Shown one piece after another: positions 33,010 to 55,500 of a stretch of DNA of 64,000 nucleotides. Position 1 is the stretch's first letter; the number at the start of each line of letters is the position of its first letter. A program made the translations under genes and the position numbers. The DNA lies in NCBI RefSeq assembly GCF_048403405.1, contig NZ_CP183129.1. One strand, written 5' to 3'. Source of the stretch: Escherichia coli. Its GTDB lineage: Bacteria; Pseudomonadota; Gammaproteobacteria; Enterobacterales; Enterobacteriaceae. Below the pieces are notes generated by a model. It was not told the DNA's origin. It worked only from the letters and a program-made list of their open reading frames with translations, and ran no database searches.

Positions 33010-33740
33010 CTAGCGCGTTCGCTGCGAATGCACCTGCTGCTTATCCAGCTTTTGCACCAGCGGCTGCACCACTTTATCCCCATGCTGACCAAAGTATTGA
33101 TACAGCGTATCGGACGCACTTTTGGTCAGCACCATAATCTCAATGCGTCGGTTGCCCGCGCTTTGCGGATTTTTCGCGTCCAGCAGCATCTGGTCCGCCA
33201 TCGCGCTCACCTGCATCACTTTATCTTCCGGCATTCCGGCCTCTTCCAGCACCCGACGAGCCGAAAGCGCGCGATCGCCCGAAAGGTTCCAGTTGTTGTA
33301 GATATTGTTTTTGTAGGCCATCGCATCGGTATGCCCGGTAATAATAATTTTGTTATCGAGCGAGTCGAACACTGGCGCGAGCTCCACCAGCAAAGTTTTA
33401 AAGAACGGCATAATCTGTGCGCTGCCGCGTTCAAACATATTGCGGTTCTGGTCATCTTTAATCAGCACGCGCAGTCCCTGGGGAACAATCTCCATCTCCA
33501 GATTCGCTTCCATATGTGCATCACGGGCAATGGTGTTGATACTGGTCGCCAGCTCGCCAAGCTCAGTAGCGGATTTCTTCTTCAGCAGCGCCGTTTTCTC
33601 ATTGACGTCACGCGCTTTTTTCTCCGTCTCTTCCGGCACCGCCACGGTGGCAGGTTTTGGCGGATGAGACAGGCTGATTTTATTTAACGGCGACAACCCG
33701 CCGCCATTGAAAATCGACTGCCCGTGCAGCGCGGCGATAA
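33010..33740 (-). pseudogene. lafU: Lateral flagellar motor protein LafU (MotB-like), N-terminally truncated: Flag-2 remnant
   Basis: C-terminal OmpA-like domain present (...IIITGHTDAMAYKNNIYNNWNLSGDRALSARRVLEEAGMPEDKV...NRRIEIMVL); no N-terminal TM anchor. Confidence 0.7.
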
Positions 33741-35479
33741 TGCTTTCACGCTCGGATTTACTGACGCTGTTGACAATCAACTTTATCGTCGTCACCAAAG
33801 GGGCCGAGCGTATTTCCGAGGTTTCTGCCCGCTTTACCCTGGACGCGATGCCCGGCAAACAGATGGCGATTGACGCCGATCTTAACGCCGGGTTGATCAA
33901 CCAGGCGCAGGCGCAAACCCGGCGTAAAGATGTTGCCAGCGAGGCCGATTTCTACGGCGCAATGGACGGGGCATCGAAGTTTGTGCGCGGGGATGCCATC
34001 GCCGGGATGATGATTCTGGCGATCAACCTGATCGGCGGCGTCTGTATCGGGATCTTCAAATACAACCTGAGCGCCGATGCCGCCTTCCAGCAATATGTGC
34101 TGATGACCATCGGCGACGGACTGGTGGCGCAGATCCCGTCCCTGCTGCTTTCCACCGCGGCGGCGATTATCGTCACCCGCGTCAGCGACAACGGCGATAT
34201 TGCCCATGACGTGCGTAACCAGTTGCTGGCAAGCCCGTCGGTGCTCTACACCGCCACCGGGATCATGTTTGTGCTGGCGGTTGTGCCGGGGATGCCGCAT
34301 CTGCCGTTTTTGCTGTTCAGCGCCCTGCTTGGTTTTACCGGCTGGCGGATGAGCAAACGCCCGCAGGCGGCGGAGGCGGAAGAGAAAAGCCTCGAAACAC
34401 TGACCCGAACCATCACCGAAACCAGCGAGCAACAGGTCAGTTGGGAAACTATTCCGCTGATCGAGCCCATCAGCTTAAGCCTCGGCTACAAGCTGGTGGC
34501 GCTGGTGGACAAAGTACAGGGTAACCCGCTCACCCAGCGGATTCGCGGCGTGCGGCAGGTGATTTCTGACGGTAACGGCGTGCTGCTGCCGGAGATCCGC
34601 ATTCGGGAAAACTTCCGCCTCAAGCCCAGCCAGTACGCCATTTTCATCAATGGCATTAAGGCTGATGAAGCGGATATTCCGGCGGATAAACTGATGGCCC
34701 TGCCCTCCAGCGAAACCTACGGCGAGATTGACGGCGTGCTGGGGAACGACCCGGCGTACGGGATGCCGGTGACCTGGATCCAGCCCGCGCAGAAAGCGAA
34801 AGCGCTGAATATGGGGTATCAGGTGATCGACAGCGCCAGCGTGATTGCCACCCATGTGAACAAGATTGTCCGCAGCTATATTCCTGATTTGTTTAACTAT
34901 GATGACATCACGCAGTTGCATAACCGTTTGTCGTCGATGGCACCGCGCCTGGCGGAAGATTTGAGCGCGGCGCTCAATTACAGCCAATTGCTGAAAGTGT
35001 ACCGGGCGCTGCTGACCGAAGGCGTTTCCCTGCGCGATATTGTCACCATCGCCACCGTGCTGGTCGCCAGTAGCACAGTGACCAAAGATCATATCCTGCT
35101 GGCGGCCGATGTGCGCCTGGCATTGCGGCGCAGCATTACCCATCCGTTCGTTCGCAAGCAGGAGCTGACGGTGTATACGCTGAATAATGAGCTGGAAAAT
35201 CTGCTCACCAACGTGGTGAATCAGGCGCAACAGGGCGGGAAAGTGATGCTCGACAGCGTGCCGGTCGATCCGAATATGCTCAACCAGTTCCAGAGTACGA
35301 TGCCGCAGGTAAAAGAGCAGATGAAAGCGGCGGGGAAAGACCCGGTGCTGCTGGTGCCGCCGCAGTTGCGTCCTTTGCTGGCGCGTTATGCAAGGTTGTT
35401 TGCGCCGGGGCTGCATGTGCTGTCGTATAACGAAGTGCCGGACGAGCTGGAGTTGAAGATTATGGGGGAGTTGAGTTGA
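33707..35479 (+). pseudogene. lfhA: Lateral flagellar export protein LfhA (FlhA-like), N-terminally truncated: Flag-2 remnant
   Basis: FlhA-like from ...NFIVVTKGAERISEVSARFTLDAMPGKQMAIDADLNAG onward; lacks the first roughly 100 residues. Confidence 0.7.
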
Positions 35480-35576
35480 TGGGGGAGACTATATAAGGTC
35501 TCGGACTGTCCCCTCGCCCCTTTGGGGAGAGGGAGAAAAACGTGTACGACTTTAACTTTTTCGCAGTATTGCCGTC

Positions 35577-42974: not shown

Positions 42975-43326
42975 AGCCTGTCCATCATTCTGTGTAAATG
43001 CCTTTCTCAGAAGTGACCGTCAAGGCGGTCACCGAACTCGATAATAAAGCGACTCATCCCTATCCGCCAGTCCTGAAGTGGCATCGTCCATTTTTGCGAC
43101 GCTGACTGGAAAGCCAGCCACACCACTTTTTTCACCGACTCATCTGTCGGGAACACTTTCCGTTTCTTTATCGCATGTGTGATGATGCTATTCAGCGATT
43201 CGATTGCGTTAGTGGTGTAGATAACCTTGCGGATCGCCTCCGGGTACACGAAGAATGTGGCAACATTCGGCCAGTTTGCCCGCCAGCTGCGACTTATCTG
43301 CGGGTACCGTGCATCCCATTCCTTCC
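42975..43326 (-). mobile_element. IS256-family transposase gene fragment (3' end only)
   Basis: Minus-strand translation ...YPEAIRKVIYTTNAIESLNSIITHAIKKRKVFPTDESVKKVVWLAFQSASQKWTMPLQDWRIGMSRFIIEFGDRL, a typical IS256-family C-terminus. Confidence 0.6.
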
Positions 43327-43349
43327 CAGGGAAAGATTACGAAAGCCCG
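43327..43349 (+). repeat. 23-bp direct repeat, copy 2 (cagggaaagattacgaaagcccg)
   Basis: Overlaps the 3' end of the ISAs1 transposase gene. Confidence 0.6.
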
Positions 43350-44458
43350 CTCCCCGCAAGGACTGACGCCAGATAGTTTCTGTCCATGGCTGCTTTTCGC
43401 ATCTTACGTCTTAACCCTGCCTTGAATACCTTATCATTCGTCAAAATATTAATAGCGATGTGCCGTATCCCTGAAAATAATTCTGCTGCGTTTCCTCTTC
43501 TTATTTTGCAGTCGTCTTCATTCATTACCACGTCCAGACGCCAGTGCAGCTTATTCTCCACGTGCCAGTGGTTTCGGATTGCTGTGGCGAACTTCTCTGC
43601 GGTTAAATCAGCAGAACTAATATAATATCTGACCGTCATTTCTGGCTCTTTCTTTTGTTCTGCTATTATTGACCGAAAGGAGACTGCCACGCATAATTTC
43701 TTCAGACCTTTCCATTCAAACGTGAAATCAATAAGTTCATCAGGGACATCGCAAACAATGTGAAGACGGATTTCTTCTCTGCCGTGACTCTTTTCACTCA
43801 TTGCGTAACTGTCATGCTCTGGATTATTTAATTCTTTCAGCGGAAATTTTTCCTCGAAGGCTTTATTTAGCCGCCCCTGGTTTCCTTTTACAGCGAATAA
43901 ATAATCACCTCCCTGTTTTTGTATCTTCTCTGCAATATCTTTCTGGCAACCCATCGCATCAGTTGTGATGATTTTTCCTTTAATATCCAGCATGTTAAGA
44001 AGTTCTGGGATAGCTGTAATTTCATTGGATTTCTCATCCGTCCTGATCTGTCCGATGACCAGACTGTGCATTGTTGAGAACGCACTAATGACATGAATCG
44101 CTCCCTTGCGGCGACTCTTGTCATAAGAATGCCGGAGTGTTTTTCCATCAATTGCGATGACGTCTTTATCATCTGAAGTATGGCAATCTCGCATCCAGTT
44201 AATAAAGCACTCGTGAAATTTTGCAGGACTGATACAGGATACAACTCTGGCGATGGTATCGTGAACAGGAATACCATTTTCAAAATCACCGTATTGTTTT
44301 AAAAAATCGAGATGTGTTTCCCCAAAATCCTCTATATCTTCCCAACCTTCCGCACCCGAAATAACGGCACAAATAGTCAACAGTAGAATATCCGATAATT
44401 TATGTTCCACTTTCCAGGCTTGTCTGTAATCGGGGATAATAGAAATATGCCCCATCAA
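43337..44458 (-). CDS. ISAs1-family transposase (Rhs-associated H-repeat protein)
   Basis: 373-aa [49 protein letters not shown]..., DDE-type; positioned downstream of the Rhs element. Confidence 0.85.
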
Positions 44459-44693
44459 TTTTTTAAGTTCTATTTTGTTCTCCTTAATTATGTAAGGAGT
44501 ATTTGATCATGTATAAGCAATAAAAAACAGCTTTAGGTAATGAGGAATATCTCAATTTTTAAACATAAAATGCGAATTATTTAGTACAAAAAAGCAGCGT
44601 TACGTGATCTTTCCCTGCACTTCACCCTAACTTTAATTTAACTTCAAGAAGTATTAAGGCCTCAATAGCGAACTTAATACTTCTTAAAGAATA

Positions 44694-45071
44694 TCACTCC
44701 TGACCAAAATCTTTCCACACTAATGCATGAGACTTTGATTTATCACCCAAAAATTTACTTACATCTTTCCAAAGTAAAGAATTGCTATCGGTCGCAGTGA
44801 CTATTGCCTCTATAAGCCCTGTAGCTACAACTGTGGCCAATTCATCATCAATCGAGACCATACCATCTTCGACATGTTTAAATATTTTTTCTCTTTCAAT
44901 ATCACCCATTTCATAAAAATTTTTTACAATCGTTTTTCCAATCTGAGAGAACAACATAACCACCGGTGGAGTTTCTGGATGCCAGTATTCATTAGCTAAT
45001 GAGACTGTCTCAGACAAAACAGTGGAAAACGATGCCATTTTTTCTATATAATTAGCAATATATTGGTTCAT
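44694..45071 (-). CDS. Putative Rhs toxin immunity protein (125 aa)
   Basis: Start codon overlaps the Rhs stop (TAATG on the minus strand); small cytoplasmic protein; AT-rich by eye like the toxin tip. Confidence 0.6.
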   Translation of the reverse strand: MNQYIANYIEKMASFSTVLSETVSLANEYWHPETPPVVMLFSQIGKTIVKNFYEMGDIEREKIFKHVEDGMVSIDDELATVVATGLIEAIVTATDSNSLLWKDVSKFLGDKSKSHALVWKDFGQE

Positions 45072-45802
45072 TACTTGCCTCCCAAAGCATTCTGTAAATC
45101 CTGAAGAACGTTTTCTGCTGCTGCTCGATCCCCTGGAGATGCTGTTGGATTCTTATCCAACCAATCCTGTAAAGCCCTTGTATAATCCTGTGCTTTCAAT
45201 ACATGTCCTCTACCACCAACTTTTTCACCTGTGGCCAATTCATAACGAACAGCATCTGCTGTGCTTCCACTTCCTACTTTTGCATTTGGCCGATAAAGAT
45301 CGTCTATAATATTTTTCAAATTTGAATCTGTAACGTCAGGTTTTCCCATCTTCTGTCGCAATTCATCTTTATACCGTTCATGCTGCATACGATCTCTTGC
45401 GCTATTCTCATCTTCTGGTCCCCATCCTCCCGGGCTTCCCGTACTGCCACCACCCAGGCAGTTCTTCTCTTCCTCCGTCAAATCCTTCCCGACATTTGGA
45501 TTCTCTTTTGATGAATCATCATTTCCAAACACGCTGGAAAAAGCACCATAGGGATCTCGCCAGAATTCCATTTGACTTTGTGCATTTAATAATTCGGCTT
45601 CACCCTGCATCTCCATACTTTTCTCAATCGCGTCCCCAACAGCCTCGCGATTGTTGTATATTATTATACCACCACCAATAACCACCGTACCGACTGCCGC
45701 ACCGACTAACATCCCCGGAGGGCCTCCTACCGAACCGATCTCTGTACCTACTTCAGAACCAGTTCCCATGGCAGTTAATGCTCCTGCGCCCAACGCCGCA
45801 CT
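45071..45802 (-). other. Rhs variable C-terminal toxin tip (about 243 aa after the DPLGL motif), family not assigned
   Basis: Begins with a Gly-rich hydrophobic stretch ([23 protein letters not shown]), then a charged domain (...[52 protein letters not shown]...). Confidence 0.55.
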
Positions 45803-48800
45803 TAATCCCAGCGGATCCAGCCGTTGCACCGGGTTCAGTGGATACGCATACAGGTTCCATCCCCCCTTCAGCCCAATCGGATCCTGGGTGATATACCTCC
45901 CCTGTAGCGGGTCATAGTACCGGTGACGGTTGTAGTACAGCCCCGACTCCTCATCATACTGCTGCCCCGGCAGACGGAGTGACTGTTGAAGGTGCTGCGC
46001 GCTGGTTTCGCCCAGCAGGTTTCCCCACTCGTCATACTCCCCGCGCCACGCCGTTTCCCCTTCCGGGCTGATAAGCGCCTGCGGCAGCCCACGGTGGTCA
46101 CAGTGGTAAAGATGAAGTTTCCTCTCCGGGATGTATTCCGCCTCCAGTTGCGCCGCCATCTGTTCCGCCGTCAACCCACACTGTGCAAGCCACTGCTGGC
46201 TTTCTTCACTCACGCTGCCCTGCCGCAGTTCCCGCTCCAGCCTCCCCAGCATCACCGCCAGCTCCGCCGGTAGCGTCACACCCGTGTCCTCCTGCAACAC
46301 CTCCGCCAGGCTACGGTGCCGCGCCTTCGCCTGTTCGCCATTCTCTGTTTCGATTCTCAGGAGCGGCGTGAAGCTCCCCGGCTGGTATACCGTCTGGATA
46401 CGCGTGGTGTCGGTCTGTACCGTCGTCAGCCTGTCGCCGTCCCACCCGTACCAGGTCACCTCCGGTTTACGCGACAGCGACATCCACCCCGTCAGGTCAC
46501 GCTCCCGCCGCCACACCCGTTTTCCCGTCCGGCGGCCCAGCGGGTCATAGAGGTAGCGGCTCTCCACCTGTGGCTCGCCGTGCTGTATCCGCGTGTAGAA
46601 CACCAGGCGGTGCTGGCTGTCGTAATGGTAGTGGTGCGTCCGCTCGTCGTGCATCCGTATCACCCCTTCCGGGATACGGTCCGTCTTCTCCGCCAGCCTG
46701 CCGTATTCATCGTAGCGGTAGACATAGTGCGCATCTTCCGTGATGCGGTTATCCGGCCACGCCGTGAAGGTGCTGTCCGGGTGCAGTTCCGGGTCCGGCA
46801 GCCGGTTTCCTGCCGGGTCCGTCGCATACGGGATATCAATGTCCAGGTTCGCTGCCGTGGTGTGGACGCCCGTCAGCCTTCCCGTGTCGCTGTAACGGTA
46901 CTCCCGGCTCTCCTGCGGGCCGCTGATGCGAATTAGCTGTCCGTTGTCGTTCCAGTCGTAGTCACGGTCAAGCTGCGGAAGGTTCAGGTGCCTGCTCCGG
47001 AGCTGGCCGCTGGTATTCCAGGCGGTGGCAAGCTCATATGCCTCCCCGCCGAAGCTGCGGGCCGTCTCACGGTGCAGCCGGTCCCGCGTGTACTCGACCA
47101 GTGGCGTACCACCCAGCTTCATTCCCGCAAGATAACCGCTGCCATACGTCAGCCACTCCACCGGCGGCAGACCGTCCGGCTCCTGACGGGTCGCCAGCCC
47201 CTGTTCGCTGTACGCGTGCTTCATCTCATGCTCCCACAGCATCTCCCCCGTCTCCGGGTTCTCCACCGTCTGCCGTTCGCCGGTCAGGCGGCCTTTATCG
47301 TCGTGGCCGTAGTGGACCGCCACACGGTGGCCTTCGCTGATATGGCTGATTTCTGTCAGCCAGCCGTGCTCATCATACTGCCACTGCTCCGCCGGGTCGC
47401 CGTTCACCGTCCGGTGCGTGATGCGGTCCGACGCATCGTAATGCCAGAGGGTGATAAGTCCCTCGTCTTCACTGTGGACAAGCTGCCCTGTGGCGCTGTA
47501 CCGGTAACGCTGCGTCCTGCCGTCAAAGCCGCGCTGCTCCGTCAGCCTGTCCACCGGGTCATACCGGAACGTGGACTGGCTGCCGTTCTCGTTGGTCAGC
47601 ACGGTGATGCGCCCGGCAGCGTCATACCCCATGCTGCGCGTCAGACCGCCTTCCGTCACACTCACCGGACGCCCGCGTTTATCATATTCGATGGTGCTGC
47701 GTTTACCGTCCGGTGATATCGTTGCTGTCAGGTCGCCTGCGGCGCTGTACTCATAACGGGTTTCACGCCCCTGCGCATCCTTCTGACTGACCAGTTGGCC
47801 TCGCGGGTTATAACTGCTGTAAGTGCTGATGCCTTCCTCCCGGTGAACGGCGATTTGTTGACCGTACCGGTCATACTCATACCGCGTCATGTACCCCGAG
47901 CAGTCCGTGAAGGCCCGAAGCTGACCGTACCGGTTTCGCGTTATTCTCCGCGTCACCCCGATTCCGTCTTCCACCGCGCCGGGCAGGCTACTGCGGGGGG
48001 AGTCATAAAACCAGCGCGTAATGTTACCGTTGCGCGAGATCTCTTCTGCCAGTCGGCCCTGACGGTCATATTTCCGGCTGCTGCGTAAACCATCCGGATA
48101 TGTCACTGAAGTCAGTTGCAACTGGCTGTTGTAACCATACCGTACCGTCCTGCCGTCCGGCAGTATCACTGAAGTCAGCTTTCCAGACGCCATATGCAGC
48201 CGGTACTCCGTCCGCCGTCCTGCCGCATCCGTCTGCGCCTTCAGCCTCCCCGCCTCATCATACTCGCTGCGGGTGATGCTCCCGTCGGCATGCTCCTTCT
48301 TCACCACACGCTTCAGGCCACCCCCGCCTTCCGTGTACAGCACCTCCCGCCGGTTCAGGCTGTCCGTGATGGTCACACGGTCCTGCCCGTACTCAAAGCG
48401 GTAGTCCAGCCCCTCCGGGTTGACCTGCTCCGTCACCCGCCCGGTATCATCATACCGGTAGCGGCTCTCCGGCCTCCCTGCATAATGGTGCGCCACCATC
48501 CGCCCGGCGTGCTCCGCATCATAAGTAAACCCGCGCACCTGCGTCCCGCTGCGGTCATACACCGCCCGCAGTTCTCCGCTGGCCGTGTACGTATAGCGCG
48601 CCAGCGGCGCAGTCGGCTGTTCATCCGGGTATGCCGGGTCGTGTGTCAGCCACACCGCCTCCAGCCGGATACCGTTATCGGCACCGTATTCTGTACCGGC
48701 GGGCAGCGTATCGGGGAAAACCTGAGAAGAGGAAACAGAACGGGGACCGGCTGGAGAAGATAAAGAAGAGGCGCGCTGTTTACGGAAGGCTTCCGCCCGC

Positions 48801-49573
48801 TGCGCCTGCGTGCTCAGCGCCAGGTGAAAACAGCGGCCCGCGCCGTCCGTCACCCCCGTCACCGCACCCGCCACGTCACCCTCTGCCGCCCGGTGGAAGG
48901 CCAGCGTCCGCCCGAAGCCGTCCACCACGCCCGTCAGCACCCGGTATGCGGGCGGCTCCGGCGGCAGCACCTCGTCCGCCCCCGGCACCCGCTCCGGCCA
49001 GCCGAGCACCAGCCACTGCCCGGTTGTGCTGGCAGCCATCATATAGATGTGTGGACTCAGACGGACCGCTTCCGGCAACGCCCGCCAGAGCCGCGCAAGC
49101 GGGTGGCCTTTGTGCTGCTGTTTCAGCACCCCGCACCGCGCCAGCCAGAACGACTCGCTGCGGCTGTAGCTTATCTCGCCGGGAAACAGGGGTTCAAAGT
49201 GAATGCTCCTGCCGCCGCTGTCGTTGAGTATCAGGCCTTCATCGCGTATCTGTAAGCGGATATCGAAGGGGGCTTTCCAGCCGGGACCAAACACCCCCAC
49301 CGGCGCGGGCGTCCTGGTCCGGTAGCTGCTGTAGGCGCGGAAAAGAACAAACGGCAGCGGGCCGGACAGTGCCAGGTCGGTTTCAGCAGGCAGCACCTTC
49401 GCTCCCAGCAGCGGGTTTACCGGATTGCCATATTTCGGCGTGGCTTCCCCTGTGGGACACACCGAGCAGGCCACACCGGTTGGCGCACCTATCAGCACCC
49501 CTGCTGAACCCTGCACAATATCCAGTCCCTTGCGGGTCATGTCACCCTGCCGCGCCGCCGGTTTTCCACCCAT
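45071..49573 (-). CDS. rhs: PAAR-domain Rhs-family T6SS effector (RhsA-like core with variable C-terminal toxin)
   Basis: 1500 aa; N-terminal PAAR-like [13 protein letters not shown]...[18 protein letters not shown]; YD repeats; core end ...[42 protein letters not shown]. Confidence 0.9.
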
Positions 49574-52518: not shown

Positions 52519-53214
52519 TTGTAAACTCCTTGTTAACGTGGTTAATTACTACTTACAATGACCTGCCGTTAATCCCAGACAGGCAGATGCAACTCACTTC
52601 ACGGAACCGCATCATTTTTCAGTATTTTTTACATACAAACCGAGCTAGAATTTACGGTTGTCGTAAAAACTATTTTTAAAATCATTAAATCTCTTATTCA
52701 GCAATAAGTTAATAATATATATCTGGATAACCATACCCAACTGTTCAAAGTCCGTATTGCCTCCATAAAATGGCCAAAGCTGAATCATGAATAAATATTG
52801 TATTTATCCTTTCTGAATTATCATTTTGATAATTTTTGAGATATTCCTTAAAAATACCCACTTAATCAATCACAAAACAAATATATAAACAAGCAATCAT
52901 CAGATTAGCTTATGTTTAATGAAATTATTATATAATTCAATAAGTTACATAAAAACTCTATATTTAAATTATTGCCATAATACACCTGACGCGAATTTCG
53001 AAGGTTCACACAATCTATTTAACGCTTGCAGAATACCTCTCTTTACGATCGATAAAAAGTCCTTTTCTTATTTATTTTGAAGCGTAGAATGCGGGGTGAT
53101 GAAGGAGTGGTGATTTTATTTTCACCGCCATTAAGGCGGCATTGCCGATATTTTTTTGCGGTACAAATATGCCGTGTTCATGGCCTGTACGAGATAACAT
53201 GACGGATCACTTTT
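52519..53214. promoter_or_regulatory. AT-rich divergent intergenic control region between hcp-vgrG-rhs (-) and tssB operon (+)
   Basis: About 700 bp non-coding, very AT-rich with A/T tracts; flanked by divergent operon starts. Confidence 0.5.
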
Positions 53215-53715
53215 ATGAGCAAAAAATTTGAAGGCAGCGTCGCGCCTCGCGAGCGTATAAATATATCCTATGTCCCGAAGACGGACGGCCAGACGGCTGA
53301 AGTGGAGCTTCCGCTTAACATGCTCGTTGTCGGCGATACCGGAAATACGCAGGAGACATCCCCACTGGATGAACGTCAGGCAGTTTCCGTTAACAAGCAC
53401 AATTTCGGTGCGGTGATGGCTGAAGCAGCCATTGGCCTCAATTTTACCGTCCCCGCCACGCTGAAGGGAAGCACAACGGACGATGAACTGAATGTGGCGC
53501 TGAATATCAAGTCACTGGATGATTTTTCACCGGACAGCGTGGCCCGGCAGGTTCCGGAAGTTAATAAATTGCTGGAATTGCGTGAAGCACTGACTGCGCT
53601 GAAGGGGCCGATGGGCAACCTTCCGGCATTCCGTACCCAGCTCCAGGCATTGCTGGAAAATGAGGAGTCCCGCGAGCAGTTGCTCAAAGAAATCGGCCAA
53701 GTGAGTGGGAAATAA
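53215..53715 (+). CDS. tssB: T6SS contractile sheath small subunit TssB
   Basis: 166 aa; motif RERINISYVPKTDGQTAEVELPLNMLVVGD. Confidence 0.88.
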   Translation: MSKKFEGSVAPRERINISYVPKTDGQTAEVELPLNMLVVGDTGNTQETSPLDERQAVSVNKHNFGAVMAEAAIGLNFTVPATLKGSTTDDELNVALNIKSLDDFSPDSVARQVPEVNKLLELREALTALKGPMGNLPAFRTQLQALLENEESREQLLKEIGQVSGK

Positions 53716-53749
53716 CCACCACTATTTCATTAAACAGGGTTATCCAGAC

Positions 53750-53974
53750 ATGGCGGCACACAAAAATATCTCCGGGAAAAACCCCCTCTCTGACGAAGAC
53801 ATTTTGCAGGCGGTTTACCGGGTATGTTTCAGCCCGTCCGGTGAAATCAACCGGGATGGCGTGGATGCGCTGATTACAACACTGGATCGCCGTATCAGTG
53901 ATCTATTGGATGAGATTATCCATTTTTGTGAGTTTCAGCAGAGCGCGTCGCACTGGCAGCGCGTACTTCACTGA
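53750..53974 (+). CDS. Hypothetical small protein between tssB and tssC
   Basis: ORF MAAHKNISGKNPLSDEDILQAVYRVCFSPSGEINRDGVDALITTLDRRISDLLDEIIHF...; conserved-looking operon position but no family recognised. Confidence 0.35.
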   Translation: MAAHKNISGKNPLSDEDILQAVYRVCFSPSGEINRDGVDALITTLDRRISDLLDEIIHFCEFQQSASHWQRVLH

Positions 53975-54024
53975 TGGCGAAAAGCCGGTTTCAGAAACAC
54001 AGCTAAAACAGAAGGATTTTCAGT

Positions 54025-55500
54025 ATGTCTTTACAGGAAGAGGAACTCGTTTCCAGTCATGCCGGGCAGCCTGAGCAGGCATCGTCGCTGCTTGATCAAA
54101 TCATGGCACAGACCCGTATTCAGCCCGGTTCGGAAGGTTATGACGTTGCCCGCCAGGGTGTGACAGCCTTTATTGCCAGCATCCTGCAATCCACTGCATC
54201 TGCCGAACCGGTCAATAAACTGGCCGTGGACAGCATGATTGCAGATATTGATGAACGCATCAGCCGCCAGATGGATGTCATCATCCATGCGCCTGCCTTT
54301 CAGCAGGTCGAGTCGTTCTGGCGCTCACTGAAAACCATGGTGGATCGCGTTGATTTCCGTGAAAACATCAAGGTCAACGTGCTTCATGTCACCAAGCAGG
54401 AACTTCTGGAAGACTTTGAGTTTGCGCCAGAAATTATTCAGTCCGGATTTTATAAGCACGTTTATTCGTCCGGTTTCGGACAGTTTGGCGGTGAACCCAT
54501 CGCTGCCGTGCTGGGCGCTTATGAGTTCAAAAATACCGCGCCTGACATGAAACTGCTGCAATACGTCAGTGCCGTGGGCGCAATGGCGCACGCACCGTTC
54601 CTGTCCTCCGTTTCCCCGGAGTTTATGGGGCTGAACTCGTGGACCGAACTGCCTAATATCAAAGATCTTTATGCCATCTTTGAAGGTCCGGCCTACACCA
54701 AATGGCGCGCCCTGCGAGACTCGGAAGATTCGCGCTATATAGGGCTTACGGCACCCCGCTTCCTGCTTCGCCAGCCTTATTCACCAACAGATAACCCTGT
54801 TAAGAACTTTAACTATCACGAAGATGTCAGCCGGAACCACGAAGATTATCTGTGGGGTAATACGGCCTGGATGCTGGCGTGCAATGTCGCAGACAGTTTT
54901 GCCAAATACCGCTGGTGTCCAAATATCATCGGTCCGCAAAGCGGCGGCGCAGTGAAAGATCTGCCGGTGCATCTGTTCGAAACGATGGGTCAGATTCAGG
55001 CCAAAATCCCAACCGAGGTGCTGGTCACCGATCGCCGCGAATTTGAACTGGCTGAAGAGGGTTTTATCACCCTTACCATGCGTAAAGACTCTGATAATGC
55101 AGCCTTTTTCTCTGCAAACTCGGTACAAAAACCGAAGCACTTTCCGGGCAAAGACGCAGAAACCAACTATAAGTTGGGTACGCAGCTTCCTTATCTCTTC
55201 ATCATCAATCGGTTAGCGCACTACATCAAGGTGTTGCAGCGTGAACAACTGGGGTCATGGAAAGAAAGGAGCGACTTAGAGAGGGAGCTTAATACCTGGA
55301 TCCGTCAGTATGTTGCCGACCAGGAAAACCCGCCTGCGGACGTGCGCAGCCGCAAGCCTCTGCGTGCTGCCAGAGTTGAGGTTATGGATGTGGAAGGCGA
55401 ACCCGGCTGGTACCAGGTCGCGCTGAGCGTGCGGCCCCATTTTAAATTTATGGGGGCAAACTTTGAGCTTTCCCTGGTTGGCCGGTTAGACAGGGAGTAA
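54025..55500 (+). CDS. tssC: T6SS contractile sheath large subunit TssC
   Basis: 491-aa ORF following tssB. Confidence 0.9.
   Translation: MSLQEEELVSSHAGQPEQASSLLDQIMAQTRIQPGSEGYDVARQGVTAFIASILQSTASAEPVNKLAVDSMIADIDERISRQMDVIIHAPAFQQVESFWRSLKTMVDRVDFRENIKVNVLHVTKQELLEDFEFAPEIIQSGFYKHVYSSGFGQFGGEPIAAVLGAYEFKNTAPDMKLLQYVSAVGAMAHAPFLSSVSPEFMGLNSWTELPNIKDLYAIFEGPAYTKWRALRDSEDSRYIGLTAPRFLLRQPYSPTDNPVKNFNYHEDVSRNHEDYLWGNTAWMLACNVADSFAKYRWCPNIIGPQSGGAVKDLPVHLFETMGQIQAKIPTEVLVTDRREFELAEEGFITLTMRKDSDNAAFFSANSVQKPKHFPGKDAETNYKLGTQLPYLFIINRLAHYIKVLQREQLGSWKERSDLERELNTWIRQYVADQENPPADVRSRKPLRAARVEVMDVEGEPGWYQVALSVRPHFKFMGANFELSLVGRLDRE

Follow-up and report, generated by a model that had tools for sequence, protein, structure and literature searches.

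What is a small open reading frame (ORF) doing between tssB and tssC, the genes for the small and the large T6SS sheath subunits, in Escherichia coli? The locus lies in a window of 64,000 nucleotides, the whole stretch of DNA that was analyzed (contig NZ_CP183129.1). An earlier note, made from this sequence, had described an ORF of roughly 75 amino acids between the two sheath genes and had left it as either an accessory component or chance. The ORF is indeed present, on the plus strand and with 74 codons. The features needed for what follows are these:

53215..53715, plus strand: tssB, small sheath subunit (Pfam PF05591 T6SS_VipA, E 1e-51), the upstream neighbor.
53736..53739, plus strand: Shine-Dalgarno-like AGGG, 10 nt before the ATG of the ORF.
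53750..53974, plus strand: the ORF, with ATG at 53750, TGA at 53972-53974 and 74 codons, which encodes what we interpret as a truncated TssC paralog.
53831..53965, plus strand: ORF core, codons 28-72, with homology to TssC 58-103; in TssC/VipB this segment is the first that is ordered, and it includes the domain-3 helix.
53992..54024, plus strand: tssC translation-initiation region, outside the ORF, with AAGGA at 54012-54016, 8 nt before the tssC ATG.
54025..55500, plus strand: tssC, large sheath subunit (Pfam PF05943, VipB, and PF18945, VipB_2), the downstream neighbor and parent of the ORF.

The ORF begins 34 nt 3' of the tssB stop and ends 50 nt 5' of the tssC ATG. The mechanical ORF list gives a longer version of 89 codons, which starts from a GTG at 53705 and overlaps the tssB stop. 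GC content by codon position is gene-like (0.57/0.36/0.59), and the alternative frames over the ORF hold no opposite-strand ORF of at least 30 aa and one short plus-strand overlap (53898..54074). All three deep groups of copies described below have a G-rich motif 9-11 nt upstream of their start codons. The Shine-Dalgarno duplex of the ORF with the 16S 3' end has a predicted energy of -3.3 kcal/mol, equal to the tssB value, that of tssC being -5.5. The 901 nt compared (53200-54100) are 100% identical to the chromosome of E. coli TUM14771, in which the NCBI pipeline labels the ORF "hypothetical protein" (WP_000718848.1). In that chromosome, the ORF is surrounded by a complete 20 kb T6SS cluster of the Vibrio cholerae-like type, with tagH, vasI, and a VasL-domain gene, which adjoins yafV, ivy, and fadE. 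A literature search found no description of the ORF; Z0263, a candidate match to it, is named once in a virulence-gene list.

As for its origin, the ORF is almost certainly derived from tssC. Residues 33-72 match residues 63-102 of the neighboring TssC with 43% identity over 40 aa (BLASTP, E 2e-9). When a profile of the ORF family is aligned with a profile of TssC N-termini, ORF 28-72 corresponds to TssC 58-103 with a probability of 97.7% (hhalign, E 1.6e-12). Among all PDB sequences, the best matches of the ORF profile are seven T6SS chains of the sheath large-subunit type (E 3e-7 to 0.03), including TssC 5urw (E 3e-7), VipB 5mxn/5ojq/3j9g, and TssC1 5n8n. The similarity between the ORF and tssC is also seen at DNA level, where it stands ~10 SD over shuffles. 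Matches to Pfam and NCBIfam models are confined to the first positions of TssC models and score under their cutoffs, with 18.2 bits for Pfam VipB (cutoff 27, profile positions 1-33 of 301) and 19.7 bits for TIGR03355 (cutoff 271.5). The copy is thus only partial: the ORF has no counterpart for about TssC 35-57, nor for anything beyond residue 103, and has 74 codons versus 491. That the ORF originates from the start of tssC is the key fact that the earlier note had missed.

Other routes by which such a fragment might have arisen were considered and rejected. In a phmmer search of 1.84 billion representative proteins, no TssC was retrieved at E<=0.001; the matches were ORFs from the same locus, together with a few long proteins showing weak multi-stretch matches. 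Since no TssC appeared, nothing points to a recent foreign donor, and recent import from another tssC family was rejected because this search gave no donor closer than the neighboring tssC. A tandem duplication including the ribosome-binding site (RBS) was likewise rejected: the upstream regions of the ORF and tssC look alike by eye, but not significantly so, with a score of 7 versus 7.2 +/- 1.3 for shuffles.

The copied segment has a well-described place in the sheath. In solved sheaths, VipB/TssC becomes ordered at residue ~61, and its flexible residues 1-60 contain the ClpV-binding helix (VipB 15-28) (PMC5048182, PMC4632598). In the Pseudomonas aeruginosa sheath, TssC1 S66-M86 packs with TssB1 D117-L133 and the N-terminal TssC1 helix E39-E54, and this packing forms the tri-helical bundle of domain 3, a T6SS-specific surface layer for recycling (PMC5807055). 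TssB ~100-130, which includes the domain-3 bundle helix, is reported to be necessary for TssB-TssC binding (PMC3840085). Judging by the alignment, ORF residues 36-58 (GVDALITTLDRRISDLLDEIIH) would correspond to the domain-3 helix of TssC. Residues 13-26 (LSDEDILQAVYRVC) are collinear with TssC SLLDQIMAQTRI, in the region of the ClpV-binding helix; this alignment of the ORF N-terminus (its first 27 residues) is not significant (hhalign E 0.37), so that homology to that helix is at most a possibility.

AlphaFold2, run with a nine-sequence alignment, predicts helices at ORF residues 15-26 and 35-73 with a mean pLDDT of 80, and the hydrophobic helix positions are conserved across the three deep groups. 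A Foldseek search with this model against the PDB returned only generic helical hairpins, all with E > 3. The ORF protein, if made, would most plausibly bind the TssB C-terminal helix, the TssC N-terminal helix, or ClpV, and such binding might modulate sheath assembly or recycling.

How widely is the insert distributed? Of 5,426 complete E. coli genomes, 2,257 (~42%) have the spacer between tssB and tssC in which the ORF lies (53716-54024), among them the sampled EHEC O157:H7 strains. The ORF bears no annotation beyond hypothetical protein, and such a protein is recorded at the site in each of the 59 full-length matches from an even sample of E. coli genomes. Beyond the species, we gathered 68 loci with a TssC query, one genome per species. 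The insert is restricted to one group among them: tblastn detects ORF-like sequence between tssB and tssC only where TssC is at least 87% identical, the positives being Escherichia, Citrobacter youngae, Atlantibacter subterranea, and Yokenella regensburgei. Clusters in which TssC is at most 81% identical (for example in Lonsdalea, Rahnella, Buttiauxella, Yersinia, and Trabulsiella) are without it, and tssB and tssC are separated there by a gap of 27-45 nt. The remark in the earlier note that the two genes are adjacent in many T6SS loci holds for these nearest clusters without the insert.

Further copies, always between tssB and tssC, were found in assemblies from sequencing runs (loci L077-L079) and by a DNA-pattern scan of metagenomes (L080-L084). 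A profile protein search added Salmonella enterica, Citrobacter portucalensis, and others, with the ORF at the same position. This conserved position, together with the homology to TssC, rules out a chance ORF. The copies fall into three groups: E, from Escherichia (74 aa); C, from Citrobacter, Atlantibacter, Yokenella, Salmonella, and others (70 aa); and S, comprising L077, L078, and L083 (66-78 aa). In the alignments, all fragments have derived residues in common at invariant or nearly invariant TssC positions (M71L, I75L, Q82L, and S101K/R). These shared residues point to one origin before groups E, C, and S split, and to fragments that were not overwritten by tssC after that split.

Two very different inserts are found in Escherichia albertii. 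One, in L006/L007, is intact and 93% identical to the window ORF over 225 nt; the other, in strain NBRC 107761 (L024 1818-2117), is ~29% diverged and broken. The flanking genes of E. albertii show a matching divergence at four-fold sites (0.48), which suggests that there are two old alleles of the cluster in the genus.

The earlier note had also tied the standing of the ORF to the conservation of its frame in related clusters, and here the outcome is divided: besides the clusters that lack the insert, some relatives keep the frame and others have broken it. The window copy is intact, with no disabling lesion. So are the main E. coli alleles, E. albertii L006/L007, Atlantibacter, L079, L081/L082, and L083, as well as Salmonella L085, C. 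portucalensis L086, L087, L088 (with a two-codon in-frame deletion), and L089. The ends are altered in L078, where an early stop leaves 66 aa, and in L077, where loss of the stop gives 105 aa. The frame is broken in C. youngae (in-frame stop, own stop codon lost), Yokenella (+1 frameshift and in-frame stop), E. albertii NBRC 107761 (start lost, indels), and the metagenome contigs L080 and L084 (+1 and -8 indels). Within E. coli, the ATG has become ACG in strain Z1323HEC0393 (L004), and several rare alleles carry local frameshifts. In at least four lineages that still have intact tssB and tssC, the frame has been lost, each time independently. The ATG is nevertheless kept in 18 of 21 lineages, and the TGA occupies the same position in groups E and C.

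Was the ORF ever maintained as a protein? The deep comparisons argue that it was. Comparisons among groups E, C, and S give a pN of 0.31-0.38 and a pS of 0.58-0.77, with third positions contributing 42.5% of the differences. Neutral simulations, run with kappa 3.5 as estimated from tssC four-fold sites, give a pN/pS of 0.82 +/- 0.12; the observed value of 0.53 is reached in at most 0.13% of runs, or at most 1.3% at kappa 7. All three deep lineages stay open in ~1% of neutral runs. Pairwise maximum-likelihood (ML) codon fits yield an omega of 0.20-0.42 for the deep pairs (p 5e-5 to 0.025) and of 0.68-1.8 for the shallow pairs, none of the latter being different from 1.

A branch-class codon model (our own implementation, 21 sequences, neighbor-joining tree) leads to the same pattern, four omega classes fitting better than a single omega of 0.575 (p = 0.0013). 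The deep stems have an omega of 0.28 (p versus 1 = 1.8e-6), the intact later lineages of groups C and S 0.65 (p = 0.03), the broken-frame lineages 0.60 (p = 0.04), and the E. coli/E. albertii crown 1.87 (p = 0.15). A pure neutral relic, the reading suggested by shallow dN/dS, was dropped after the deep comparisons, and a past function at the protein level is probable.

Some of these results can be read in another way, namely that the ORF is what remains of a duplication and never had a function, its deep constraint being an artifact of early gene conversion, model misspecification, or saturation. Parsimony counts show only a mild deep synonymous excess, weaker than the model signal. Moreover, omega hardly differs between broken and intact later lineages, which may mean a slight offset in the neutral baseline, and part of the synonymous excess could come from it. 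The third-position identity of the fragment is also slightly higher to its own tssC (0.49) than to foreign tssC (0.36-0.44), a difference that over 45 sites is not significant. We nevertheless regard a remnant without any functional past as improbable, because the likelihood-ratio test on the deep stems is strong, the neutral simulations rarely match the data even with kappa up to 7, and three open deep groups are seldom obtained under neutrality. Nor is gene conversion from tssC supported as the source of the low omega on the deep stems: the own/foreign difference lacks significance, and the derived residues shared at invariant TssC positions contradict overwriting after the split.

The shallow comparisons look neutral. 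Within Escherichia, pairwise comparisons give 11-12 nonsynonymous versus 3 synonymous differences and an omega of 1.0-1.16, against 0.04-0.15 for tssB and 0.04-0.09 for tssC in the same genomes. In three independent shallow pairs with 54 nonsynonymous and 25 synonymous differences, an omega of 0.1 is rejected (p = 8e-15), as is one of 0.3 (p = 0.002). Divergence of the fragment amounts to 0.5-1.2 times the four-fold-site rate of the flanking genes. The E. coli omega is estimated from ~33 substitutions, most of them on one inter-haplotype branch with a recombination breakpoint. Nor is the open frame in E. coli evidence of selection, since a neutral sequence with ~14 substitutions acquires no new stop with a probability of 0.67.

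There are essentially two haplotype families in E. coli, with 14 differing sites, all in codons 2-39, distributed 3/9/2 over the three codon positions. We treated the second-position excess as small-sample noise on one recombinant branch. Another frame or strand as its source was rejected, given the scarcity of overlapping ORFs described above. When the window is compared with the O157-type allele, a recombination breakpoint is seen inside the ORF (53750-53866 versus 53867-54354), with a tssB dS of 0.18. Outside codons 2-39 the ORF shows no difference, and tssC has at most one in its first 330 nt.

Taken with the independent losses of the frame, this makes it fairly likely that the ORF is dispensable in present-day E. 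coli. Of the two options in the earlier note, chance thus falls away, and an accessory role finds support in the past (the deep stems) and not within E. coli/E. albertii.

The ORF might, on the other hand, still encode a functional accessory mini-protein in E. coli, a mimic of TssC domain 3 that would bind TssB, TssC, or ClpV and tune sheath assembly or recycling. On that view, the high omega in E. coli would come from a small number of substitutions, from recombination, or from diversifying selection. The purifying selection seen on deep branches speaks for this, as do the ATG and TGA positions kept across lineages, the Shine-Dalgarno-like motif retained 9-11 nt upstream, the gene-like codon-position GC, and the confident two-helix model with its conserved hydrophobic positions. 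Since the frame is intact in all 59 sampled E. coli matches and in many Salmonella and Citrobacter contigs, a present function keeps some likelihood. However, omega is 1.0-1.9 in the Escherichia crown, a value as low as 0.3 is rejected for the shallow pairs, the frame has been lost repeatedly and is shifted in rare E. coli alleles, and its being open in E. coli proves little. On balance, we consider a mini-protein still functional in E. coli to be unlikely. Somewhat more doubtful is the broader proposal of an undescribed T6SS accessory mini-protein, made from TssC domain-3 helices and still active in E. coli, Salmonella, and Citrobacter, in which a free mimic of the N-terminal part of TssC would have the TssB C-terminal helix or the N-domain of ClpV as its target and so tune sheath polymerization or ClpV-driven disassembly.

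Could the insert act in cis, as a translated leader or spacer, or as a tssC 5' leader with an internal promoter or a CsrA-controlled region? In EHEC, tssB and tssC have been placed in separate transcription units and CsrA has been reported to repress tssC, both as cited in PMC13141884, a paper that also notes an ANGGA motif before tssC. Conservation within the spacer is highest over the 33 nt that precede tssC (53992-54024), which are nearly invariant across 16-21 lineages. In addition, an open frame with an omega of ~1 in E. coli is the pattern of a leader ORF, if only the act of translating matters. However, the conserved block is the ancestral tssC ribosome-binding region, and it is also present in clusters without the insert, where it corresponds to the ~20 nt that immediately precede the E. 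coli tssC. As for leader-ORF features, the 50 nt from the ORF stop to the tssC ATG are too far for classical coupling, and no regulatory RNA structure was seen. The data of PMC13141884 itself report the tssB operon as one polycistronic unit.

An internal promoter or terminator in the insert was rejected, because no sigma-70-like promoter or terminator consensus was found in the spacer. A structured RNA, riboswitch, or sRNA was rejected as well: Rfam gives no match to the spacer at E<=1, the z-score of its RNA fold is -0.9, and its consensus structure (-14 kcal/mol over 339 columns) shows little covariation. A role in cis is therefore very improbable.

Two small RNA features were observed in passing. 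A possible hairpin before tssC (CUAAAA...UUUUCAG) would show GGA in its loop. Besides, RNAalifold pairs a conserved GGTTATCC (53730-53745) with the tssC Shine-Dalgarno GGAT(TT)TC (54011-54018), ~290 nt downstream; these six pairs, mostly invariant, are maybe an anti-Shine-Dalgarno, short enough that they could be chance.

The preferred reading, which we hold to be fairly likely, is that the ORF is a truncated tssC paralog, formerly a working mini-protein and now, in this window, an open but dispensable relic. An old partial duplication would have put a copy of the tssC start between tssB and tssC, and we infer that it did so in tandem, in the ancestor of one enterobacterial group of V. cholerae-like T6SS clusters. 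The frame that survived, of 66-78 codons, would have a core copying the TssC segment that bundles with the TssB C-terminal helix. This frame appears to have been held by purifying selection on the deep branches, for which reason it most likely made a working small helical protein. Its former partner may have been the TssB C-terminal helix or the neighboring TssC N-terminal helix, and its role may have been to modulate sheath assembly or ClpV-dependent recycling. Selection would later have relaxed, lineages breaking the frame independently and the E. coli/E. albertii sequence coming to evolve as if neutral.

The system in which the ORF sits is itself poorly understood, since E. coli T6SS of this type are silent in vitro, where they are silenced by H-NS (PMC5363993, PMC13141884). 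H-NS binding is placed by the literature in the hcp-tssB intergenic region. This divergent region (52519-53214, 696 nt) holds all five sigma-70-like sites of our scan. Between E. coli alleles it differs at 141-325 mismatched columns of 696 in ungapped comparison, a level that implies indels or replaced alleles. The four annotated E. coli strains have one and the same Hcp protein (WP_001142958.1). In some E. coli with the O157-type ORF allele, tssC is damaged: it has 463 codons in O157:H7 NE 1169-1 (L002 3326-4717) and, in Z1323HEC0393 (L004 3326-4801), an internal stop and a pseudogene annotation. It has ~461 codons in E. coli MS6193 (L092). These damaged copies indicate that the T6SS is decaying in some E. 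coli lineages. In L079 (1767-2653), a contig from a sequencing run, an intact small ORF stands before a tssC shortened to 234 codons, after which comes a YafT-family gene; the T6SS cluster was thus deleted and the ORF survived.

Elsewhere in the window, a 4.5-kb RHS core protein gene and a small downstream ORF lie on the minus strand, downstream of vgrG, at ~43010-49573 (L001 9811-16374). Beyond them come an ISAs1-family ISEc1 transposase and a transposase fragment, and the whole looks like an effector/immunity region bounded by insertion-sequence remnants. Remnants of a lateral flagellar (Flag-2) system, lafU and an N-terminally truncated flhA pseudogene, are found at ~33200-35482 (L001 1-2283).

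An origin from a tssC fragment explains the unusual tssB-tssC gap. For annotators, truncated TssC paralog is the appropriate label, and the ORF should not be taken as an independent virulence or T6SS marker. If the mini-protein works, it would be a cheap and testable handle on sheath assembly and recycling in this T6SS, and would clearly exemplify how a structural subunit can give rise to an accessory factor. Otherwise, it is a decaying duplicate of the ordinary kind.

How does the ORF compare with known systems? The nearest is TssC/VipB itself, with which it shares the homology of residues 28-72 to TssC 58-103, a place next to tssC, and the operon orientation. It differs in having 74 aa versus ~490, in lacking sheath domains 1 and 2 and the C-terminal gp25-like domain (PF18945), and in being ~43% identical over 40-45 residues only, far under the family cutoffs. 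Given this truncation, the missing domains, and the sub-threshold scores, the ORF product cannot form a sheath.

A second comparison is with accessory proteins of the TagJ/HsiE1 type. In the P. aeruginosa H1-T6SS, TagJ/HsiE1 has the TssB N-terminus and ClpV as binding partners. Like such accessories, the ORF is small, lineage-restricted, non-essential, and inside a T6SS cluster, and its likely partners would be the sheath surface recycling elements (compare PMC4632598). As with Tag-type genes, its position is conserved, between tssB and tssC in Escherichia, Salmonella, Citrobacter, Atlantibacter, Yokenella, and metagenome contigs, all within the one group. Unlike TagJ, to which it has no sequence relation, the ORF derives from TssC.

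Finally, the ORF resembles the remnants of partial duplications in having an adjacent functional parent, in being truncated, and in showing recent near-neutral evolution and repeated independent disruption. It differs from them by its long early purifying selection (omega 0.28), and by a start, stop, and length kept across several genera, with an intact frame in nearly all cluster-bearing E. coli. The ORF therefore fits the description of a truncated paralog left by partial gene duplication, its less common trait being the long upkeep of the frame by selection.
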